This document shows, in pieces, positions 953 through 36,565 of a DNA stretch of 41,896 nucleotides. Numbering within the stretch: position 1 is the stretch's first letter; each line of letters starts with the position of its first letter. The notes under the pieces are model-generated. The model saw only the letters and a program-made list of their open reading frames with translations. It was not told where the DNA came from and did no database searches. Origin of the DNA: a virus (taxonomy: Duplodnaviria > Heunggongvirae > Uroviricota > Caudoviricetes); the IMG/VR virus record IMGVR_UViG_2512047041_000010; one strand, written 5' to 3'. The position numbers and the translations under genes are program-made.

Positions 953-1279
953 ATGACTAAAAATACTCGTTTTTCCCCCGAAGTCCGTCAACGGGCAGTC
1001 CGTATGGTTCTGGAAAGTCAGGGCGAATATGACTCACAATGGGCGACAATTTGTTCCATTGCCCCAAAGATTGGCTGTACACCGGAGACTCTGCGTGTCT
1101 GGGTACGCCAGCATGAGCGGGATACCGGAGGCGGTGATGGCGGGCTCACCACCGCTGAACGTCAGCGTCTGAAAGAGCTGGAACGTGAAAATCGTGAACT
1201 GCGCCGCAGTAACGATATCCTTCGCCAGGCTTCCGCTTATTTTGCGAAGGCGGAGTTCGACCGCCTCTGGAAAAAGTGA
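953..1279 (+). CDS. IS3-family transposase OrfA (HTH/leucine-zipper part)
   Basis: 108-aa ORF beginning [19 protein letters not shown], typical IS3-family OrfA; overlaps orfB start (ATGATG/TGA overlap at 1276..1279). Confidence 0.85.
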
Positions 1280-2166
1280 TGCCACTGCTGGATAAGCTGC
1301 GTAAGCTGTACGGGGTCGGACCGGTATGCAGTGAACTACATATTGCCCCGTCAACGTATTACCACTGTCAGCAACAGCGACATCATCCTGATAAACGCAG
1401 TGCCCGTGCGCAGCGCGATGACTGGCTGAAGAAAGAGATACTGCGCGTATACGATGGGAATCATCAGGTATACGGTGTGCGTAAAGTCTGGCGTCAGTTG
1501 TTACGGGAAGGAATCAGGGTAGCCAGATGTACAGTGGCGCGCCTCATGGCGGTTATGGGACTTGCCGGTGTTCTCCGGGGTAAAAAGGTCCGCACTACCG
1601 TCAGCCGGAAAGCCGTTGCCGCAGGCGACCGCGTAAACCGTCAGTTTGTGGCAGAACGTCCTGACCAGTTGTGGGTGGCTGATTTTACTTACGTCAGCAC
1701 ATGGCAGGGGGTCGTCTATGTGGCGTTCATCATTGATGTGTTTGCCGGATACATCGTGGGGTGGCGGGTCTCATCGTCTATGGAAACGACATTCGTGCTG
1801 GATGCTCTGGAGCAGGCGTTATGGGCCCGTCGACCGTCCGGCACAGTCCATCACAGTGATAAAGGTTCTCAGTATGTATCGCTGGCCTACACACAGCGGC
1901 TTAAGGAAGCCGGATTACTGGCATCAACAGGAAGTACTGGTGACTCGTATGACAACGCGATGGCGGAGAGCATCAATGGCCTTTACAAAGCGGAGGTAAT
2001 ACACCGTAAGAGCTGGAAAAACCGTGCAGAAGTGGAACTGGCCACACTCACGTGGGTGGACTGGTATAACAATCGACGATTGCTGGAAAGGCTGGGCCAT
2101 ACTCCTCCGGCAGAAGCAGAAAAAGCTTATTATGCTTCCATCGGAAACGATGATCTGGCAGCCTGA
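1276..2166 (+). CDS. IS3-family transposase OrfB (DDE integrase core)
   Basis: 296-aa ORF with DDE-type transposase features (WVADFTYV ... HSDKGSQY ... DNAMAES); recognised as IS629-like OrfB. Confidence 0.85.
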
Positions 2167-4708: not shown

Positions 4709-7700
4709 TTAACGTTCTTCCAGAGACTGAATCCGCTCTTTTATCTTATCCATTTCTCTGCGCTGCCATGCTGCCTCGATATAGAATAAGAGATCAGGTC
4801 TGACCCCCCATCTAGATCCTGCTGGCGTTATTTCAACGCGCTCAATGATGTCTTCCATTACCATCACTGGATTATCATCCTCATCAACAATGATGCTCCC
4901 GTCATTATCAGTCAGCGGCATTTCCCTTTGGCCAGTAATGACGTCATCATATACTGCGGGATAATCGTCATAGCAAAGAAAGGCATAGCGGCATGTTGTG
5001 CTTTCTTCTTCCATGAGTCCGTGAGAAATAAGAACATCACGAAGTTGCTGCGCGATTACACCATGATGTATCCTCGCCCCTTCTTCCCCCTTTATAGCGA
5101 CAGCGTTCAGCCATTTATAAGCGATATACCTGACGTCACCCCAGGCATCCAGCAATGCTTCGTCAGGAGAGACCGGCTCTGTCTTTAATGTTCCGTCACT
5201 GGTAACCACAGGATTGGAGCCAAGATAAACTGTCGAGAACCTGTTTCCCGGACCACCAAGAGCATTTACATTATCAAGATAAGGTTTAACATCTCCGTTC
5301 TCAAAAAGATGTTCGAGTGCGTTATATACCGCGCGACGTGGAGTACTGCTTCCGGAACCATGCAACGTTATCATTGCACCATCTGCTGAAGACGTTGTTT
5401 CACCGCCGCTAACGATTAATCTCTGAGCGGTAACATCATCAGACGGTACTTTCTTCGCAATAATGGCGTAATTACCCTCAAGTTTGACTTCCGCGCGAAC
5501 TTGTCCTGATGTACCTGCATGGACAGTCAGTGACTGGACGGCAACATCATCTGTGAAATCAACGGGTACAGGAACCGTCCTCACGCCTGACGTCGACATA
5601 AAAGTAGGAAGCGTTCTGTTAGGAGTGGCTCCGTAGACAAAATCCCTTGAAACAAATTCTTCCTGTTTAATTTTCACCCTGAAACAATACAAATCAGCCG
5701 GGTGACCATCGTGAACATAAGGATATTTTCTGTTGTTATCCCCTATGCTCCATGGGTTTAGAAAGTCTTCCCCACCGAAAATGTAGTACAGCCAGTTGTC
5801 TTTGATACAAACTGAACCAACACCAACCGCAGAGTTAACTATTCCGCCCTGATAAATCTGATCAGTAACATTAACCCACTCTACATTATCCAGACTCCAC
5901 TCATTGACGTTAACTCTGGTCATAAATGTTCTTGGATAATTTCCTGCATAACGGTTATCAGGCTCTCCTCCTTCCCACTCACCAAATGCGCGCTCACTGC
6001 CAAAAATAACCAGCTCATCGCCAACTTTGGCAAAAGGAAGGTTTGAGTGATGAACATTATTTGGGAAGCGAAGAGAATTCCATGATGTACCTAAATCAGA
6101 GCTTCTGTGCAATGAACTACCGGGTTGAGTACTTAATGTCCCCCTGGTCGTCAGATACAGAATGCCATCATAATATTTTACACATGGCTCAGATGCATTC
6201 GCCTCATATTCTGCAGGTATGCGTCTGCGAACAAAGCTACCAGGAGAACCGAAAGCATCAGAGAAATAGAGTATCCCAAGCTCGCGTGGACCAATATCAC
6301 CATTATGGTAGCCAACAGCAAAACTGTTATCGCTAATCGTCGCAAAACTGTGAATCTCAGTAACAGGAGTGCTTCCGTCAACAAAAGAAGGAATAGTTCC
6401 AAGACTGGTTTTTCTCCATGGTGACGAGTGAAATGATGTGCCAAAACTCCAGTATCTACCCTCGTTATTCTGATCCACATCCTGGGTATTTTGCGTCGTA
6501 ACTGTAAAGGTATTTTTATCAATAACAGTAGTCACCGTCATATTCCCGGTAACACCTGTAACACCAGAGTTTGAGAAGTTGACAAAATCACCAGCAAATA
6601 ATCCGTGATCAGTAATGCGAATATAAGCGACTTGCTGATTTGCTGCTTTCGTTATACCACCATAAACGCGAAGGCTGCGACTCATTGGGCGATCCCACAA
6701 CTCTGCAACCTGCAGTTTATTTCCGCTCACGGTCCGCGTCTCAATTACAGCAAAAAGGCGATTTCTGACAACCCCCATACTCATGCAGTGATAGTTAACT
6801 GTGGGATAGTTTTCATGTAAATCTGTAAGCCATTCCGGCGTTGTCCAGGTCTTCCCGTCATCTCCTGAGCGAACCCATGCAACATGGAGGTTATTTACAC
6901 CATGGCGGTCTCCAGCCATAAAAGGCGCATAGATGACATTGTCATATACAAACGTTTTATCCTGCGTCCAGGCGTTGTACCACGGTGTATCTGTAATTTT
7001 AAATAACTCTCCCTGGATAAAATCTTCAGAAGCATAAAAAAGAGGCTGGCCCGGTATTCTCTCAAATAAAAAACGAGCATTTTTAAATCGACTGACATCC
7101 GGAAGAGTTGATACTTTAAAAGTAAGCCCTAATCCGTCAATTTTATAACCTGGAGATGAGGCTTCAAGGCACGCGCTTATTGCAGTGGAATCGTCATTTA
7201 TACCATCACCAACAGCTCCAAAATCTTTGGGGCTAATAGCATCACGCATTTTATCCTGGAACGTTCGGTACACAGCCCCAGAACCATACTGAATAAACCA
7301 ACCAAAACCACCAACAACCCCGGCGATTGCAGCATCGACATAATTACGCATTGAGCGATTATTTACAGCGTCCTGCTCAAATGATGGATCTGCAAGGTTA
7401 GAAATTTTGTTTTGCTTTGCATCGTAATATTTTGCAAGCAAAGATGGTTTCATCAATGCACGTCTGAACCACCCAAAACATTGCTGGATCAGCATCGTCA
7501 GGTAGTCAAAGGCATCTTCATGCACTTCGGGGAAAAATTTTCCCTGATTGCGAAGGTCTGTCTCCTGCACTACATCAAGCACACGATCTATCGTAATTCG
7601 CCATCCAGTAGCAAGCGGAGACGGAAGAACCACAGAACCGCCACTATAAGTGCCCGCCCCAGTTACCGTATAACCGGTATCCAGAACCAATTCTGTTACG

Positions 7701-7828
7701 TTCCCGTTCAGGTCAGACACCTGAACAACCAGGTCTGATTTTCTGAAAATTCGAAAAGTATACGGAAACGATGTCGTAACGCCGTTACCGGTGTATTCGT
7801 TGTGGTCAACTTCGGTTGAGACCGTCAT
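4709..7828 (-). CDS. tailspike/tail fibre with sialidase-like beta-propeller domain and C-terminal peptidase S74 intramolecular chaperone domain (putative endosialidase)
   Basis: 1039 aa. N-terminal block MTVSTEVDHNEYTGNGVTTSFPYTFRIF recognised as a phage tail-fibre anchoring domain; two perfect Asp-boxes (SGDDGKTW, SSDLGTSW) and an xRIP motif (FERIP); C-terminus (SDGTLKTEPVSPDEALLDAWGDV...ARIHHGVIAQQL) resembles the self-cleaving chaperone of endosialidases and T5 L-shaped tail fibre. Confidence 0.7.
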   Translation of the reverse strand: MTVSTEVDHNEYTGNGVTTSFPYTFRIFRKSDLVVQVSDLNGNVTELVLDTGYTVTGAGTYSGGSVVLPSPLATGWRITIDRVLDVVQETDLRNQGKFFPEVHEDAFDYLTMLIQQCFGWFRRALMKPSLLAKYYDAKQNKISNLADPSFEQDAVNNRSMRNYVDAAIAGVVGGFGWFIQYGSGAVYRTFQDKMRDAISPKDFGAVGDGINDDSTAISACLEASSPGYKIDGLGLTFKVSTLPDVSRFKNARFLFERIPGQPLFYASEDFIQGELFKITDTPWYNAWTQDKTFVYDNVIYAPFMAGDRHGVNNLHVAWVRSGDDGKTWTTPEWLTDLHENYPTVNYHCMSMGVVRNRLFAVIETRTVSGNKLQVAELWDRPMSRSLRVYGGITKAANQQVAYIRITDHGLFAGDFVNFSNSGVTGVTGNMTVTTVIDKNTFTVTTQNTQDVDQNNEGRYWSFGTSFHSSPWRKTSLGTIPSFVDGSTPVTEIHSFATISDNSFAVGYHNGDIGPRELGILYFSDAFGSPGSFVRRRIPAEYEANASEPCVKYYDGILYLTTRGTLSTQPGSSLHRSSDLGTSWNSLRFPNNVHHSNLPFAKVGDELVIFGSERAFGEWEGGEPDNRYAGNYPRTFMTRVNVNEWSLDNVEWVNVTDQIYQGGIVNSAVGVGSVCIKDNWLYYIFGGEDFLNPWSIGDNNRKYPYVHDGHPADLYCFRVKIKQEEFVSRDFVYGATPNRTLPTFMSTSGVRTVPVPVDFTDDVAVQSLTVHAGTSGQVRAEVKLEGNYAIIAKKVPSDDVTAQRLIVSGGETTSSADGAMITLHGSGSSTPRRAVYNALEHLFENGDVKPYLDNVNALGGPGNRFSTVYLGSNPVVTSDGTLKTEPVSPDEALLDAWGDVRYIAYKWLNAVAIKGEEGARIHHGVIAQQLRDVLISHGLMEEESTTCRYAFLCYDDYPAVYDDVITGQREMPLTDNDGSIIVDEDDNPVMVMEDIIERVEITPAGSRWGVRPDLLFYIEAAWQRREMDKIKERIQSLEER

Positions 7829-7931
7829 GTTAAATCTCCAGATAGTCGCAGCACCCGTTGCGCCGCATATCTGGTTATTCTATTACCTGAAAAACCACAT
7901 ATGGATAGAAAGACTGTAAATACGAATAGAT

Positions 7932-7948
7932 ATTACCTTTCAGGTAAT
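7932..7948. promoter_or_regulatory. operator-like 17-bp palindrome ATTACCTTTCAGGTAAT
   Basis: Perfect inverted repeat of the ATTACC-N5-GGTAAT family, upstream of the LexA box and the small antirepressor-like gene; same core as the site at 27053. Confidence 0.55.
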
Positions 7949-7984
7949 TTGCAAAACGTGCTGGATAGCAAACAAATTATTTGC

Positions 7985-8004
7985 TACTGTATAAATATAC
8001 AGTT
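7985..8004. promoter_or_regulatory. LexA (SOS) box TACTGTATAAATATACAGTT overlapping a putative promoter
   Basis: CTGT-N8-ACAG with an AT-rich spacer, 18/20 match to the E. coli consensus TACTGTATATATATACAGTA; lies 20 bp upstream of the ATG at 8024 and contains a TATAAAT -10-like element. Confidence 0.75.
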
Positions 8005-8023
8005 ATTGCATGGAGAAGATAAG

Positions 8024-8281
8024 ATGCAGCAGTATCACTATCCACTGGAAGACGGATTTACCGAAAGGATTCACACGCCGGGAGGCGTCAGGTCACTGGT
8101 GGAGGGATCGCACTTGATGAAATTACTCCGGGATCTCGATAAGGATGGATTTAATGTCGATGGCCCACTTGCCGAACTGACTGCACTGATTAACTACGTC
8201 ACCAGCTCACAGATGTCTATGCAGGATCTGCAAACACATCTCGACTATTGTGCCGAACAATTACGAAAACAAACCAGATAA
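8024..8281 (+). CDS. small antirepressor-like protein (paralogue of the C-terminal domain of the downstream Bro-N antirepressor), probably SOS-inducible
   Basis: 85-aa ORF with SD GGAGAAG; about 35-40% identity by eye to the last ~70 aa of the 8597..9307 product (shared IHxPxGV, LMxLL, DGxxVxG, QTH blocks); LexA box immediately upstream. Confidence 0.6.
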   Translation: MQQYHYPLEDGFTERIHTPGGVRSLVEGSHLMKLLRDLDKDGFNVDGPLAELTALINYVTSSQMSMQDLQTHLDYCAEQLRKQTR

Positions 8282-8311
8282 GATTTGAAATTACCAATAG
8301 GAGTGCTTATA

Positions 8312-8328
8312 TTTACCTTTGCGGTAAA
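8312..8328. promoter_or_regulatory. operator-like palindrome TTTACCTTTGCGGTAAA
   Basis: Same TTACC-N5-GGTAA architecture; nested inside a larger inverted repeat AGGAGTGC...GCACTCCT. Confidence 0.5.
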
Positions 8329-8360
8329 TTTACATCGCACTCCTCTTGTGCCATAGTAAT

Positions 8361-8440
8361 CGGGCACTGGCAAAATCCAGTGCCGGGATTGGCGTCCCGG
8401 GTTACTAAGTGGCGCATACCACGCCAGACGTGGTTTTTTT
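8361..8440 (+). ncRNA. putative small structured RNA upstream of the antirepressor gene (possibly c4/antisense-type regulator)
   Basis: No ORF; stem-loop GGCACTGG/CAGTGCC, second stem CCGGGA/TCCCGG, then intrinsic terminator CCACG-ccaga-CGTGG + TTTTTTT (8419..8440). Carries ACTAAGTGG, which recurs at the antirepressor RBS, with its complement CCACTTAGG in between. Boundaries are approximate. Confidence 0.3.
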
Positions 8441-8596
8441 ATGCGTTAAGCACAGCTATATCCGAATTATGGTGGGCTGGGCAGGGGTCCGAAAGGACGC
8501 CGGTACCACTTAGGCCGGTACGCCAACCTTGTCCAGTTCACCACCAGTAATTGGCGTTGCGGTGGTGATTAAAATCACTAAGTGGAGATAACCACC

Positions 8597-9307
8597 ATGG
8601 CTAATGCTCAAACTGCCATCTTCAAATTTGAATCTGTTAACCCTATCCGTTCCATCATTATCGATGGCCAACCATGGTTTGTAGCCCAAGACGTTTGTAG
8701 TGCGCTGCGTATCCAAAACGTCACCCAAGCACTTGAAAAACTGGATGATGATGAAAGGTCTATGTTCAACATAGGGCATGAACATCGTGCAATTTTTGAC
8801 AGCCGAGTAAAAGAGATCAACATTATCTCCGAGTCAGGCCTCTACACACTGATCCTCCGCTGCCGCGACGCAGTGACACCAGGCACTACCCCCTACCGCT
8901 TTCGTAAATGGGTTACAGGTGAGGTTCTTCCTCAGATCCGCCGCACCGGAAGTTACATTAAAAACTCGCTCCCGCAGGAAGAGCGCATAAAGATGGTTGC
9001 CGACCAGGTAGCCAGCGCCACAGCATCAGCAGTGATGCAGGCAATGAAGGTAGAGAACAAAACCTACAGCGCCCCGCTGAAGCCCGGCTACCGCAGCCTG
9101 ATTCACTCGCCGTCTGGTGTTCTCGGCCTGACGGAAAACTCACTGCTGATGAATCTGCTGAACCAGTTACAGGAAGACGGGCACGACGTATCGGGCGCGG
9201 CGGCGGAGGTGACCACCATGTTCTGCTACATCGTCGGTGTGAGTAAATGCCTGCGTGATATCCAGACCCACGCGGAATACATCAACGACAAGGCAGGGTT
9301 CTTCTGA
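8597..9307 (+). CDS. phage antirepressor (Bro-N N-terminal domain plus C-terminal Ant domain)
   Basis: Start at ATG 8597, preceded by SD GGAGA; N-terminal FESVNPIRSIIIDGQPWFVAQDVCSAL is Bro-N/KilA-N-like; C-terminus homologous to the 8024..8281 product. Confidence 0.75.
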   Translation: MANAQTAIFKFESVNPIRSIIIDGQPWFVAQDVCSALRIQNVTQALEKLDDDERSMFNIGHEHRAIFDSRVKEINIISESGLYTLILRCRDAVTPGTTPYRFRKWVTGEVLPQIRRTGSYIKNSLPQEERIKMVADQVASATASAVMQAMKVENKTYSAPLKPGYRSLIHSPSGVLGLTENSLLMNLLNQLQEDGHDVSGAAAEVTTMFCYIVGVSKCLRDIQTHAEYINDKAGFF

Positions 9308-9378
9308 CGGGCGGCGGCACAGGGATGTGCCTTTAAATAATTCTGTACAGATTGCAGACTGGGGGTGAATAGCGTACT

Positions 9379-9395
9379 ATTACCTCAAGGGTAAG
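9379..9395. promoter_or_regulatory. operator-like palindrome ATTACCTCAAGGGTAAG
   Basis: TTACC-N5-GGTAA family site about 60 bp upstream of the 9454 start codon. Confidence 0.5.
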
Positions 9396-9453
9396 AAAGC
9401 ATTTTTAATCTTCCCTTCAAAACGCGTCCTGTAGCCAAACATGGGAGGACGAA

Positions 9454-10086
9454 ATGAGAACAAATACAACAAGAAAAGCGATGCCATACATTATCCCAGA
9501 AGCAGATTTCGATAGAAAACTGAACATGTCTGAGAAGAACACTAGTCACACCGAAAGCTACTTAGCGAAAGGTGTGGTTGATTTCGTTCTTCCGGGATTC
9601 ACAACACCTTATGGTTATCGCCTTGTAAAATCTTGTAATGGCGATCATTACAGAATGATTACTACCAGCGATACTCCAGAAACGGTGTATGCGGTTAAGT
9701 TAATCTTTCGGGAAGATATCGTCGAAGCCAAAAGAACATGTACGCAGATCATGGTATGGCGTACGCCTAATGTTATTCATGACCGTGCTGTTCATGGTTT
9801 GCCTCAGATTTTTTTTCAGTTCTTCCTAGAGCAATATGCGATCGTTGTATCTGATGAGCAACAAACAATCGATGGGAGAAGATTCTGGGAAAGAATGATT
9901 TCTTGGGCTATAAACACCCCAGGATATAATGTATACGTTTCAGATGGCTCTGAAGAAGATAGACCTCTTAGCTTCATGACATCATGGGATGATTTCTATA
10001 GCCAGTGGGCTGATTTCTGTTGGGGCAGTGATAAAGATGTGCATACCCACAGACTACTGGTTATAAGCAAAGATAAACTGCATTAA
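9454..10086 (+). CDS. hypothetical protein, 210 aa, no recognisable domain (AT-rich moron)
   Basis: Strong SD GGGAGG 7 nt before the ATG; followed by an intrinsic terminator; lower GC than flanking structural genes; no motif I can assign. Confidence 0.6.
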   Translation: MRTNTTRKAMPYIIPEADFDRKLNMSEKNTSHTESYLAKGVVDFVLPGFTTPYGYRLVKSCNGDHYRMITTSDTPETVYAVKLIFREDIVEAKRTCTQIMVWRTPNVIHDRAVHGLPQIFFQFFLEQYAIVVSDEQQTIDGRRFWERMISWAINTPGYNVYVSDGSEEDRPLSFMTSWDDFYSQWADFCWGSDKDVHTHRLLVISKDKLH

Positions 10087-27390: not shown

Positions 27391-27467
27391 GTGGCATTAG
27401 CTCAGTTGGACAGAGCAACCGCCTTCTAAGCGGTTGGTCGCAGGTTCGAATCCTGCATGCCACGCCA
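27391..27467 (+). tRNA. tRNA-Arg (anticodon UCU)
   Basis: 77-nt cloverleaf: acceptor GTGGCAT/ATGCCAC, anticodon stem ACCGC/GCGGT with loop CTTCTAA, T-arm GCAGG-TTCGAAT-CCTGC, encoded CCA end. Confidence 0.9.
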
Positions 27468-35980: not shown

Positions 35981-36565
35981 ATGAAAAGTATCCAGGACGT
36001 CCGCAGGCAAAATCTCAACGACTTGATCGACCGTGAATTCAATGGTGTTCAGACGCGGATGGCAGAAAAACTTGGAACTCAGGCAAATCTGGTAAACCGC
36101 TGGGCTCTTGGCAAGAAGGTTATCGGCGACCAGGTTGCGCGAAAAATTGAAGCTGCCGCCAATAAACCACGTAACTGGCTTGATATCGATCGCTCGCTTT
36201 CTCAGGAAGGTTTTCAGCCTGTCGGCCCAAGCGACATTGGTCAGCTGGCGGCTCACAACCTGGAACGCTGGATGAGCGAAAGCCGCGACCTTTCAACACA
36301 GGGAAAACTTCACCGCGCATCCGGCGTCGCCCAGGTGACAATCAGCCGCCTGTTAAACAATGAGGTCAGCGTTTCCATTTCCACCCTGGAGAATGTTGCA
36401 TCCGCATTCGGGCGTCACGGCTATGAATTACTGATTCACCCGCACGACCCTGCGACCATCAACTATGACCGCTCGCGCTACGCATTGTTACCCGAAACCG
36501 AGAAAGCAAAGATCGAAAGTTACATTGAATTTGTCATCAACCAGAACGAAAAAAGCAAAAAATAA
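35981..36565 (+). CDS. CI-like prophage repressor, double-HTH type without LexA-like autocleavage domain
   Basis: 194 aa with two Cro/C1-type HTH segments (QTRMAEKLGTQANLVNRW and GKLHRASGVAQVTISRLL); no Ala-Gly/Ser-Lys peptidase S24 signature; flanked by operator clusters on both sides; own terminator downstream. Confidence 0.6.
   Translation: MKSIQDVRRQNLNDLIDREFNGVQTRMAEKLGTQANLVNRWALGKKVIGDQVARKIEAAANKPRNWLDIDRSLSQEGFQPVGPSDIGQLAAHNLERWMSESRDLSTQGKLHRASGVAQVTISRLLNNEVSVSISTLENVASAFGRHGYELLIHPHDPATINYDRSRYALLPETEKAKIESYIEFVINQNEKSKK

Follow-up and report, generated by a model that had tools for sequence, protein, structure and literature searches.

A predicted IsrK–C4 RNA immunity module ahead of the Bro-N antirepressor gene in an epsilon15/phiV10-like prophage of Escherichia coli

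What fills the 315 bp (8282..8596) between an 85-aa ORF (8024..8281) and the ATG at 8597 of an antirepressor gene, and could it control that gene through RNA? The question arises in an epsilon15/phiV10-like (Uetakevirus) prophage of E. coli, which makes up the window, i.e. the whole 41.9-kb stretch of DNA that was analysed; its best phage match is HEMP4 (98.4% identity), and its identity to phiV10 is 79%. The gene in question, ant (8597..9307, + strand), encodes a 236-aa protein with a Bro-N domain (Pfam Bro-N, 5.3e-20) and a C-terminal domain. The product matches PHROG “anti-repressor Ant” families (best 1.5e-56), and RefSeq annotates the same CDS in E. coli strain F11. In the related Uetakevirus ZX5 the over-expressed Bro-N anti-repressor drives the phage toward lysis, and the published study of that phage treats the protein without any RNA control. 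None of the three public records inspected (one of phiV10 and two of E. coli F11) carries an RNA annotation at the locus. The original prediction, made from the sequence alone, was that antirepressor translation is under RNA control of the c4/ant type, and this general idea is supported by the results described here.

Covariance searching with the Rfam models identified two known RNA families in the gap, both on the + strand and both above their curated cut-offs. These are isrK (RF01394) at 8364..8440 (67.7 bits against a cut-off of 50, model positions 1-77) and C4 antisense RNA (RF01695) at 8465..8548 (66 bits against a cut-off of 45, E 4e-12, model positions 1-87), giving the order isrK, C4, ant. 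A third Rfam model, the c4-a1b1 motif (RF03163), falls under its cut-off at 8351..8403 (44.1 bits vs 46.7). On P1 the c4-a1b1 model scores 51 bits, and in the window the isrK match covers the same DNA. Because the a1/b1 leader of P1 also gives a weak, sub-threshold match to the isrK model (35.1 bits), isrK and c4-a1b1 seem to cover overlapping stretches of one and the same target-bearing leader with a terminator. Judged by homology, the gap is a copy of a known phage RNA immunity module, consisting of an IsrK-type leader RNA and a C4 antisense RNA, and we consider it highly probable that the locus is a P1-type secondary immunity (immI) module carried by an epsilon15/phiV10-like prophage. The module is already known in kind; with isrK and C4 both above cut-off in the Rfam check that had been proposed, C4 family included, the RNA is not a new one. 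The literature uses the name “IsrK-C4 immunity system” for the arrangement, which is common to P4, P1, P7, N15 and some lambdoid prophages.

The recognition elements of the module form two triplets. The first contains the 9-mer ACTAAGTGG, which occurs at 8404..8412 and 8577..8585 as had been claimed. A complement was also predicted at 8506..8514, and it does lie there, between the two copies, but its sequence (CCACTTAGG) is complementary to only 8 of the 9 bases, the exact reverse complement being CCACTTAGT. The core CTAAGTGG has three copies in the window, against 0.74 expected window-wide, and every one of them is in the gap: b1 (8405..8412, + strand) in the linker ahead of the IsrK terminator, b2 (8578..8585, + strand) in the ant leader, where it overlaps the Shine-Dalgarno sequence GGAG (8584..8587) that stands 9 nt ahead of the ant ATG, and a - strand copy at 8506..8513. 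Read on the + strand this last copy is b' (CCACTTAG), located in the loop of the second inner hairpin of C4. The second triplet, which had been missed in the original prediction, consists of TTGGCGT at 8389..8395 (a1, in the loop of IsrK hairpin 2) and at 8551..8557 (a2, a target in the ant leader 5 nt past the CCACC end of C4), with the complement ACGCCAA at 8520..8526 (a', in the unpaired stretch between C4 hairpin 2 and the closing stem), all on the + strand. Pairing is perfect for both ant targets (7/7 for a2 with a', 8/8 for b2 with b') and likewise for a1 and b1. As b1 is identical to b2 and not complementary to it, the two can not pair with each other. In an alignment, b' takes the position of the P1 b' (TCACTAAC) and a' that of the P1 a' (CTGTCAA). 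Further C4 targets were looked for in the prophage, and the 41.9-kb window holds no other copy of CTAAGTGG; the remaining five copies of TTGGCGT were rejected as targets, being at chance level and without a b partner.

In the C4 RNA a long stem closes over a pair of inner hairpins, and there is a CCACCA at the 3' end. The minimum-energy structure of the predicted mature RNA (folded as 8471..8546) has this shape, at -43.1 kcal/mol; on the + strand z is -4.48, and none of 200 shuffled sequences was as stable. Hairpin 2 carries b' in its loop, and a' stays unpaired on the 3' side; pairing probabilities within this fold are 0.15 for b' and 0.01 for a'. The opposite strand of C4 has no fold signal (z -0.14). 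When the whole transcript is folded, C4 is still an independent domain in the minimum-energy structure, and b' and a' are free. Compensatory double changes affect 10 of the 24 consensus pairs of C4 among 43 relatives of different specificity types. The acceptor-like stem of 16 bp together with the 3' CCACCA is consistent with an RNase P substrate, and by homology with the annotated 77-nt c4 of P1 the mature C4 is predicted at about 8471..8545. The calculated interaction gain between C4 and IsrK, or between C4 and the ant leader, is only -0.9 to -2.8 kcal/mol with a program that can not model loop-loop (kissing) complexes, and for this reason the energy calculation is uninformative and lends no support to intermolecular pairing of C4.

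Upstream of C4 lies the IsrK-type leader RNA (8364..8440, + strand), which begins with two hairpins and continues through a single-stranded linker to an intrinsic terminator. Its part of the transcript folds with a minimum free energy of -30 kcal/mol (z -2.4), and hairpins 1 and 2 are conserved with compensatory changes in 38 relatives. The folding check run on the IsrK and C4 parts (z -2.4 and -4.5) thus bears out the stable stem-loops that had been noticed, and the predicted intrinsic terminator is also present (ACCACG-CCAGA-CGTGGT followed by T7, 8418..8440, + strand, found by a terminator scan). Its stem (8418..8434) has 6 pairs, 4 of them G-C, and is followed by seven T ending at 8440; b1 is only 5 nt ahead of this stem. 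With regard to Hfq binding, the terminator hairpin and its U-tail are the one visible feature. A counterpart of the terminator, visible as a T-run at about -32 relative to C4, exists in 101 of 103 related loci, P1 included. The original prediction had taken the terminated RNA for the regulator, and here the roles turn out to be reversed: the RNA at 8364..8440 is IsrK, carrying a copy of the target, and the antisense RNA is C4.

A consensus scan places a promoter-like site (TTTACA-17-CATAGT, 9/12 matches) at 8329..8357 on the + strand, with a TG before the -10 hexamer (extended -10). The predicted start is near 8364, where position 1 of the isrK model falls, 7 nt past the -10 hexamer. Just upstream, the same type of scan gives a second promoter-like site (TTGAAA-17-TATATT, 8285..8313, + strand); both are treated here as predicted sites. 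No promoter-like site was found by consensus scan between the terminator and C4. Transcription of C4 and ant would require read-through of the IsrK terminator.

The ant leader itself can fold. Within a fold of 8549..8620 (-22.1 kcal/mol, z -3.0) a hairpin at about 8562..8596 on the + strand displays b2 and the Shine-Dalgarno sequence apically. Inspection by eye suggests that phiV10 retains the stem, one G-C pair being replaced there by A-U.

The strength of the two triplets can be judged across related loci. A pattern scan of viral contigs for the C4 core returned 120 loci, or 107 after removal of duplicates. These carry 6 types of a', and an exact complement to a' is found within 20 nt past C4 (a2) in all 107 loci and upstream (a1) in 105 of them. 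The b' loop is far more variable, with 39 types; a b2 complement of at least 7 nt is present for 35 types, a b1 complement for 26, and both for 25. As a control, the flanks of each locus were tested against b' loops taken from other loci. A downstream complement of at least 7 nt was found for the locus' own b' loop in 94/107 loci, compared with 133/2140 for foreign loops, and an upstream complement in 70/107 compared with 113/2140, so that foreign-loop pairings reach 7 nt or more in only about 5-6% of cases. The phiV10 locus illustrates the pattern: it has CTAAAAGG at both targets and CCTTTTAG as b', where the window has CTAAGTGG and CCACTTAG, all three b elements having changed together. This three-way co-variation is, on comparative grounds, the strongest evidence that the complementarity is functional. 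The distance to the coding region is also constrained, with the start codon of the first ORF 7-16 nt past b2 in most related loci. The first ORFs encode 82 distinct proteins, of which 32 are Rha-type, 17 are ORF6N/P22_AR_C and 13 are Bro-N, the rest being short (e.g. icd of P1). Given this variety, which includes Rha, ORF6N/P22_AR_C and Bro-N proteins, direct control of a full-length antirepressor seems to be common.

The closest mechanistic reference is immI of P1 and P7. The original prediction described the control as like c4 but with a different sequence; the window instead carries a homologue, which scores 66 bits against the C4 model (RF01695) compared with 68.8 bits for P1 c4 and aligns position for position with the P1 RNA. 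The P1 record has the same order as the window (a1, b1, terminator-like hairpin, C4, a2, b2, start codon), and in an element-by-element alignment its elements are equal in length to those of the window, with 7 nt for a and 8 nt for b. In both, b' is in hairpin loop 2, a' in the 3' joint and b2 at the ribosome-binding site. The differences in sequence are compensatory, with a being TTGACAG in P1 and TTGGCGT in the window, and a' CTGTCAA and ACGCCAA, respectively. A repressor operator is located at the P1 promoter (Oc4/Op51), and the window has an operator-like palindrome. The two loci differ in what is controlled: C4 of P1 acts on the small icd ORF (73 aa), translation of which is needed for ant1/ant2, whereas b2 of the window is directly on the Bro-N ant gene. 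Going by annotation alone, the Ant proteins of P1 and the window appear unrelated, and the hosts of the modules are an integrated podovirus (the window) and a plasmid myovirus (P1). The P1 record calls the role of a1/b1 only “putative”. Because the recognition sequences differ between the window and P1 (at 3/7 positions in a and 4/8 in b), cross-immunity between them is not expected, for which the heteroimmunity of P1 and P7 is a precedent; the bases predicted to set the immunity specificity of the prophages described here are those of a' (ACGCCAA) and b' (CCACTTAG). In the immI systems of P1 and P7 (Citron and Schuster 1990, as cited in later work), it is at the ribosome-binding site that c4 RNA stops ant from being translated. 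The class of mechanism has been known since 1990, and the locus opens no new question.

From the computed elements and their positions, the two Rfam memberships, the folds and the three-way co-variation of a and b, we infer the transcripts, the processing of C4, the sign of the regulation and a decoy role for IsrK, as follows. Transcription from the promoter at about 8329..8357 would start near 8364, and control of this promoter by the prophage repressor, by way of the palindrome at 8313..8327, is probable as well. Most transcripts would end at the terminator (8418..8440), yielding a 77-nt IsrK RNA, and read-through transcripts would run on into C4 and ant. By analogy with P1, C4 would be cut out of the read-through RNA at about 8471..8545. 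The 5' end of P1 c4 is made by RNase P. The excised RNA would fold into a tRNA-like long stem, with b' exposed at a hairpin loop and a' at a joint left unpaired, and would pair with a2 and b2 in the ant leader; as b2 overlaps the Shine-Dalgarno sequence, ribosomes would be blocked and no antirepressor would be made. The untranslated ant RNA may in addition be terminated early by Rho, as in P1. IsrK, because it carries perfect a1 and b1, would act as a target mimic that competes for C4, either as part of the precursor, in cis, or as the separate short RNA, in trans, and abundant IsrK would release ant translation. Such competition agrees with observations on Gifsy-1 of Salmonella, where anrP translation went up 139-fold when short IsrK was provided in trans (PMC4825925).

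Three other readings of the locus have to be weighed against this one. The gap might be ordinary spacer with chance repeats, or it might code for a small protein that has escaped annotation. The gap is in fact crossed by mechanical ORFs (8248..8550 and 8409..8513 on the + strand, plus two on the - strand), so that of the claim of a 315-bp gap without an ORF the length stands and the absence of ORFs does not hold literally. Nor is a single 8-mer with two direct copies and an inverted one between them vanishingly rare: in random sequences of 315 nt one turns up at a rate of about 0.4-0.8%, and the figure for a pair of distinct 7-mer triplets is about 0.6-1%. However, the phiV10 homologue carries 1- and 2-nt indels within the region, which break the frames and argue that the ORFs are non-coding; the RNA models account for the conservation, and the ORFs were dropped as coding candidates. 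Only one strand gives a fold signal, matches to two Rfam families exceed their cut-offs, and the co-variation extends over 107 loci. The comparative evidence is far stronger than the chance statistics of the triplets, and we regard the chance or coding reading as refuted by it, with practically no probability left. A more serious alternative is a switch in cis as described for isrK-orf45(STnc1160)-anrP of Gifsy-1 (PMC4825925), a locus that shares with the window a C4-like segment downstream of isrK followed by an antirepressor-like gene, and that makes a terminated short RNA and a read-through mRNA, as proposed here. A processed RNA, STnc1160, is found downstream of IsrK in Gifsy-1, and its authors explain IsrK by a structural switch and a leader ORF, not by titration of a processed RNA (PMC4825925). 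Transferred to the window, the C4 segment of the unprocessed mRNA would silence ant in cis, short IsrK would remodel it in trans, and ant would be coupled to a leader ORF starting at an AUG in the 5' end of C4. At the homologous locus this is backed by compensatory mutants, native gels and 30S footprinting (PMC4825925), and the window has a conserved AUG at 8470, inside the C4 5' end, at nt 107 from the predicted start, the same distance as that of the first orf45 AUG in Gifsy-1. Yet the ORF from this AUG has only 14 codons (8470..8514, stop included); its TAG overlaps the 3' end of b' and lies more than 80 nt short of the ant ATG, which makes coupling of this leader ORF to ant implausible. 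In relatives the reading frame opened by this AUG has anywhere between 8 and 416 codons, and with its length unconserved an orf45-type translational coupling was rejected for the window, which has no orf45 equivalent and whose antirepressor, unlike that of Gifsy-1, is a Bro-N protein. The position of b2 directly on the ant Shine-Dalgarno sequence, and the minimum-energy fold that leaves C4 independent with b' and a' free, also argue against the switch, and as the main mechanism here we consider it unlikely.

A third reading would have C4 act on a1/b1 and a2/b2 of the nascent RNA, so that transcription ends prematurely, either at the IsrK terminator or by the action of Rho in the leader. This is how the systems of P4 (CI RNA with seqA and seqC) and N15 (CA RNA with antA) mainly work; they are likened to the window by description, having a processed small RNA, targets on both sides of it and a role in immunity or anti-immunity (PMC3632133, PMC4825925). 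CI RNA, seqA and seqC of P4 have been called structural homologues of C4 and IsrK that act by termination, and N15 controls its antirepressor by a small processed RNA. In the window, the closeness of b1 to the terminator stem and the conservation of that terminator across the related loci would fit such a role. Pure termination, however, needs neither b2 on the Shine-Dalgarno sequence nor a start codon close behind b2, and both are seen, the latter family-wide. Biere, Citron and Schuster are said to have concluded in 1992 that early termination in P1 is a consequence of the translational block. Termination as the primary mechanism is accordingly rated as quite improbable, and both it and the structural switch in cis may be partial contributors to the translational block by processed C4 that we favour.

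The original prediction also named sar/ant of P22 as a model. P22 sar represses antirepressor synthesis, as in the control proposed here, and it is a small RNA. It is a cis-antisense RNA, made from the opposite strand across the ant ribosome-binding site. A transcript of this kind was rejected for the window, since no promoter-like site was found on the - strand in 7700..9500, the - strand fold signal is absent (z -0.14) and no match to sar was obtained at E<=1; the analogy with P22 does not apply. The closest published description of the architecture of the window that we found is that of the APSE phages of Hamiltonella (PMC7313666), in which c4 and isrK, the same Rfam pair, lie next to a Bro-N gene, and a' and b' match the region upstream of this adjacent gene. 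Host and phage differ from those of the window. For APSE a second match is reported at the 3' end of a DNA polymerase gene (PMC7313666), whereas CTAAGTGG has no copy in the window outside the gap.

The module is probably linked to the prophage repressor. An operator-like palindrome, TTACCTTTGCGGTAA, is found at 8313..8327 (no strand assigned) and ends 2 nt before the -35 hexamer of the isrK promoter. The pattern TTACC-N5-GGTAA has 13 copies in the window against 0.85 expected, a number reached by 0 of 100 shuffles, and two of the copies are in the divergent region adjoining the gene for a 194-aa HTH repressor (35981..36565). In Uetakevirus-type loci the palindrome is present about 152 nt ahead of C4 in 10 of 10 cases, with conserved arms and a variable spacer. 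From this conservation and distribution it is probable that the prophage repressor binds the palindrome at 8313..8327.

A perfect LexA box (7987..8002) precedes the 85-aa ORF (8024..8281), which is a free-standing copy of the C-terminal domain of Ant (41% identity), and the palindrome of the prophage repressor occurs at both promoters, i.e. that with the LexA box and that of isrK. A terminator-like site was looked for between the 85-aa ORF and isrK and none was found, so SOS transcription could enter isrK-C4-ant. This raises the tentative and on balance doubtful idea that the IsrK/C4 switch is one arm of a three-input induction circuit, in which SOS transcription reads into isrK-C4-ant and titrates C4. 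If so, SOS read-through would flood the cell with a1/b1 and a2/b2, coupling DNA damage to a collapse of RNA immunity, and two antirepressors with a common effector domain would be controlled by LexA, RNA and the repressor. The proposed gating of Ant by C4 and IsrK informs work on induction or superinfection immunity of these prophages, which are widespread: of 5426 complete E. coli genomes, 535 have a 1.6-kb block with the module, 230 of them with coverage of at least 80%. An endosialidase tail fibre adjoins the module in the window, and also in K1/ExPEC strains that are among the genomes with the block.

A perfect LexA box (7987..8002, CTGTATAAATATACAG) lies upstream of isrK, the leader RNA of the IsrK/C4 module, and is directly followed by an 85-aa ORF (8024..8281). 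Both the box and the ORF are retained in phiV10. The ORF product and the C-terminal domain of the Bro-N Ant, which is encoded downstream of the C4 antisense RNA, share 41% identity over 74 aa (E 2e-15), and the two proteins match the same family, phrog_450. No terminator-like site was found between the 85-aa ORF and isrK. The ORF may code for a small, Tum-like antirepressor under SOS control, a paralogue of the Ant that is controlled by RNA. A LexA-like box, CTGTAAGTAACCACAG, is found about 359 nt 5' of C4 in L005, L010, L011, L015, L032 and about 15 other viral loci, which make up a separate phage lineage with a fixed distance between box and IsrK/C4 module. Because this box stands upstream of the module of a separate lineage, an SOS input beside the module may recur in lineages other than that of the window.

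The palindrome TTACC-N5-GGTAA, with up to one mismatch allowed, occurs 13 times in the window against an expectation of 0.85, a count reached by no shuffle. The sites, of 15 nt each, start at 7933, 8313, 9380, 27054, 30242, 30260, 33518, 33580, 35526, 35863, 35911, 36623 and 36685, and most of them are intergenic, as judged by reading the ORF list. Two copies are situated in the divergent region adjoining a 194-aa HTH repressor-like gene (35981..36565), one is 5' of the LexA-box promoter, and one is at the isrK promoter (8313..8327, just 5' of the -35 element), where it is kept in all ten Uetakevirus-type loci with a variable spacer. The copies resemble a set of dispersed operators and recall P1, whose C1 operators are likewise scattered.

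The isrK-promoter copy forms the centre of a long imperfect inverted repeat, GGAGTGC...GCACTCC (8291..8345), the arms of which are, by eye, perfect and 18 nt long in phiV10 (L001, 2517..2557). This repeat is a candidate for an extended operator or, alternatively, for a hairpin in the RNA where the upstream gene ends; a T-run is absent 3' of it.

In each of three viral contigs (L013, L021 and L093), two complete C4 modules are present, separated by about 650-870 bp. The loops of b', one of the two C4 recognition elements, differ between the copies of each pair, and in L013 and L021 the types of the other element, a', differ as well; such doubling suggests stacked immunity specificities. The prophage of E. 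coli F11 (L124), otherwise near-identical to the window, has, shortly 3' of the Bro-N ant region, an extra cassette (L124 10200..11930) with genes for a "phage antirepressor N-terminal domain" protein and an Arc-family protein. Since the window has different ORFs at the same position, the region 3' of ant appears to be a place where anti-immunity cargo is exchanged.

Elsewhere in the window, an ALIL pseudoknot (1234..1350; Rfam RF01497, 116 bits), the element that signals frameshifting in IS3-family transposases, spans two overlapping ORFs (953..1279 and 1276..2166), which indicates that an IS element adjoins the prophage end. The corresponding place in strain F11 is occupied by yfgG, yfgH and yfgI. 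The prophage also bears a tRNA gene (27391..27464; Rfam tRNA, 73.3 bits), the counterpart of which in the related F11 prophage is annotated as tRNA-Arg.
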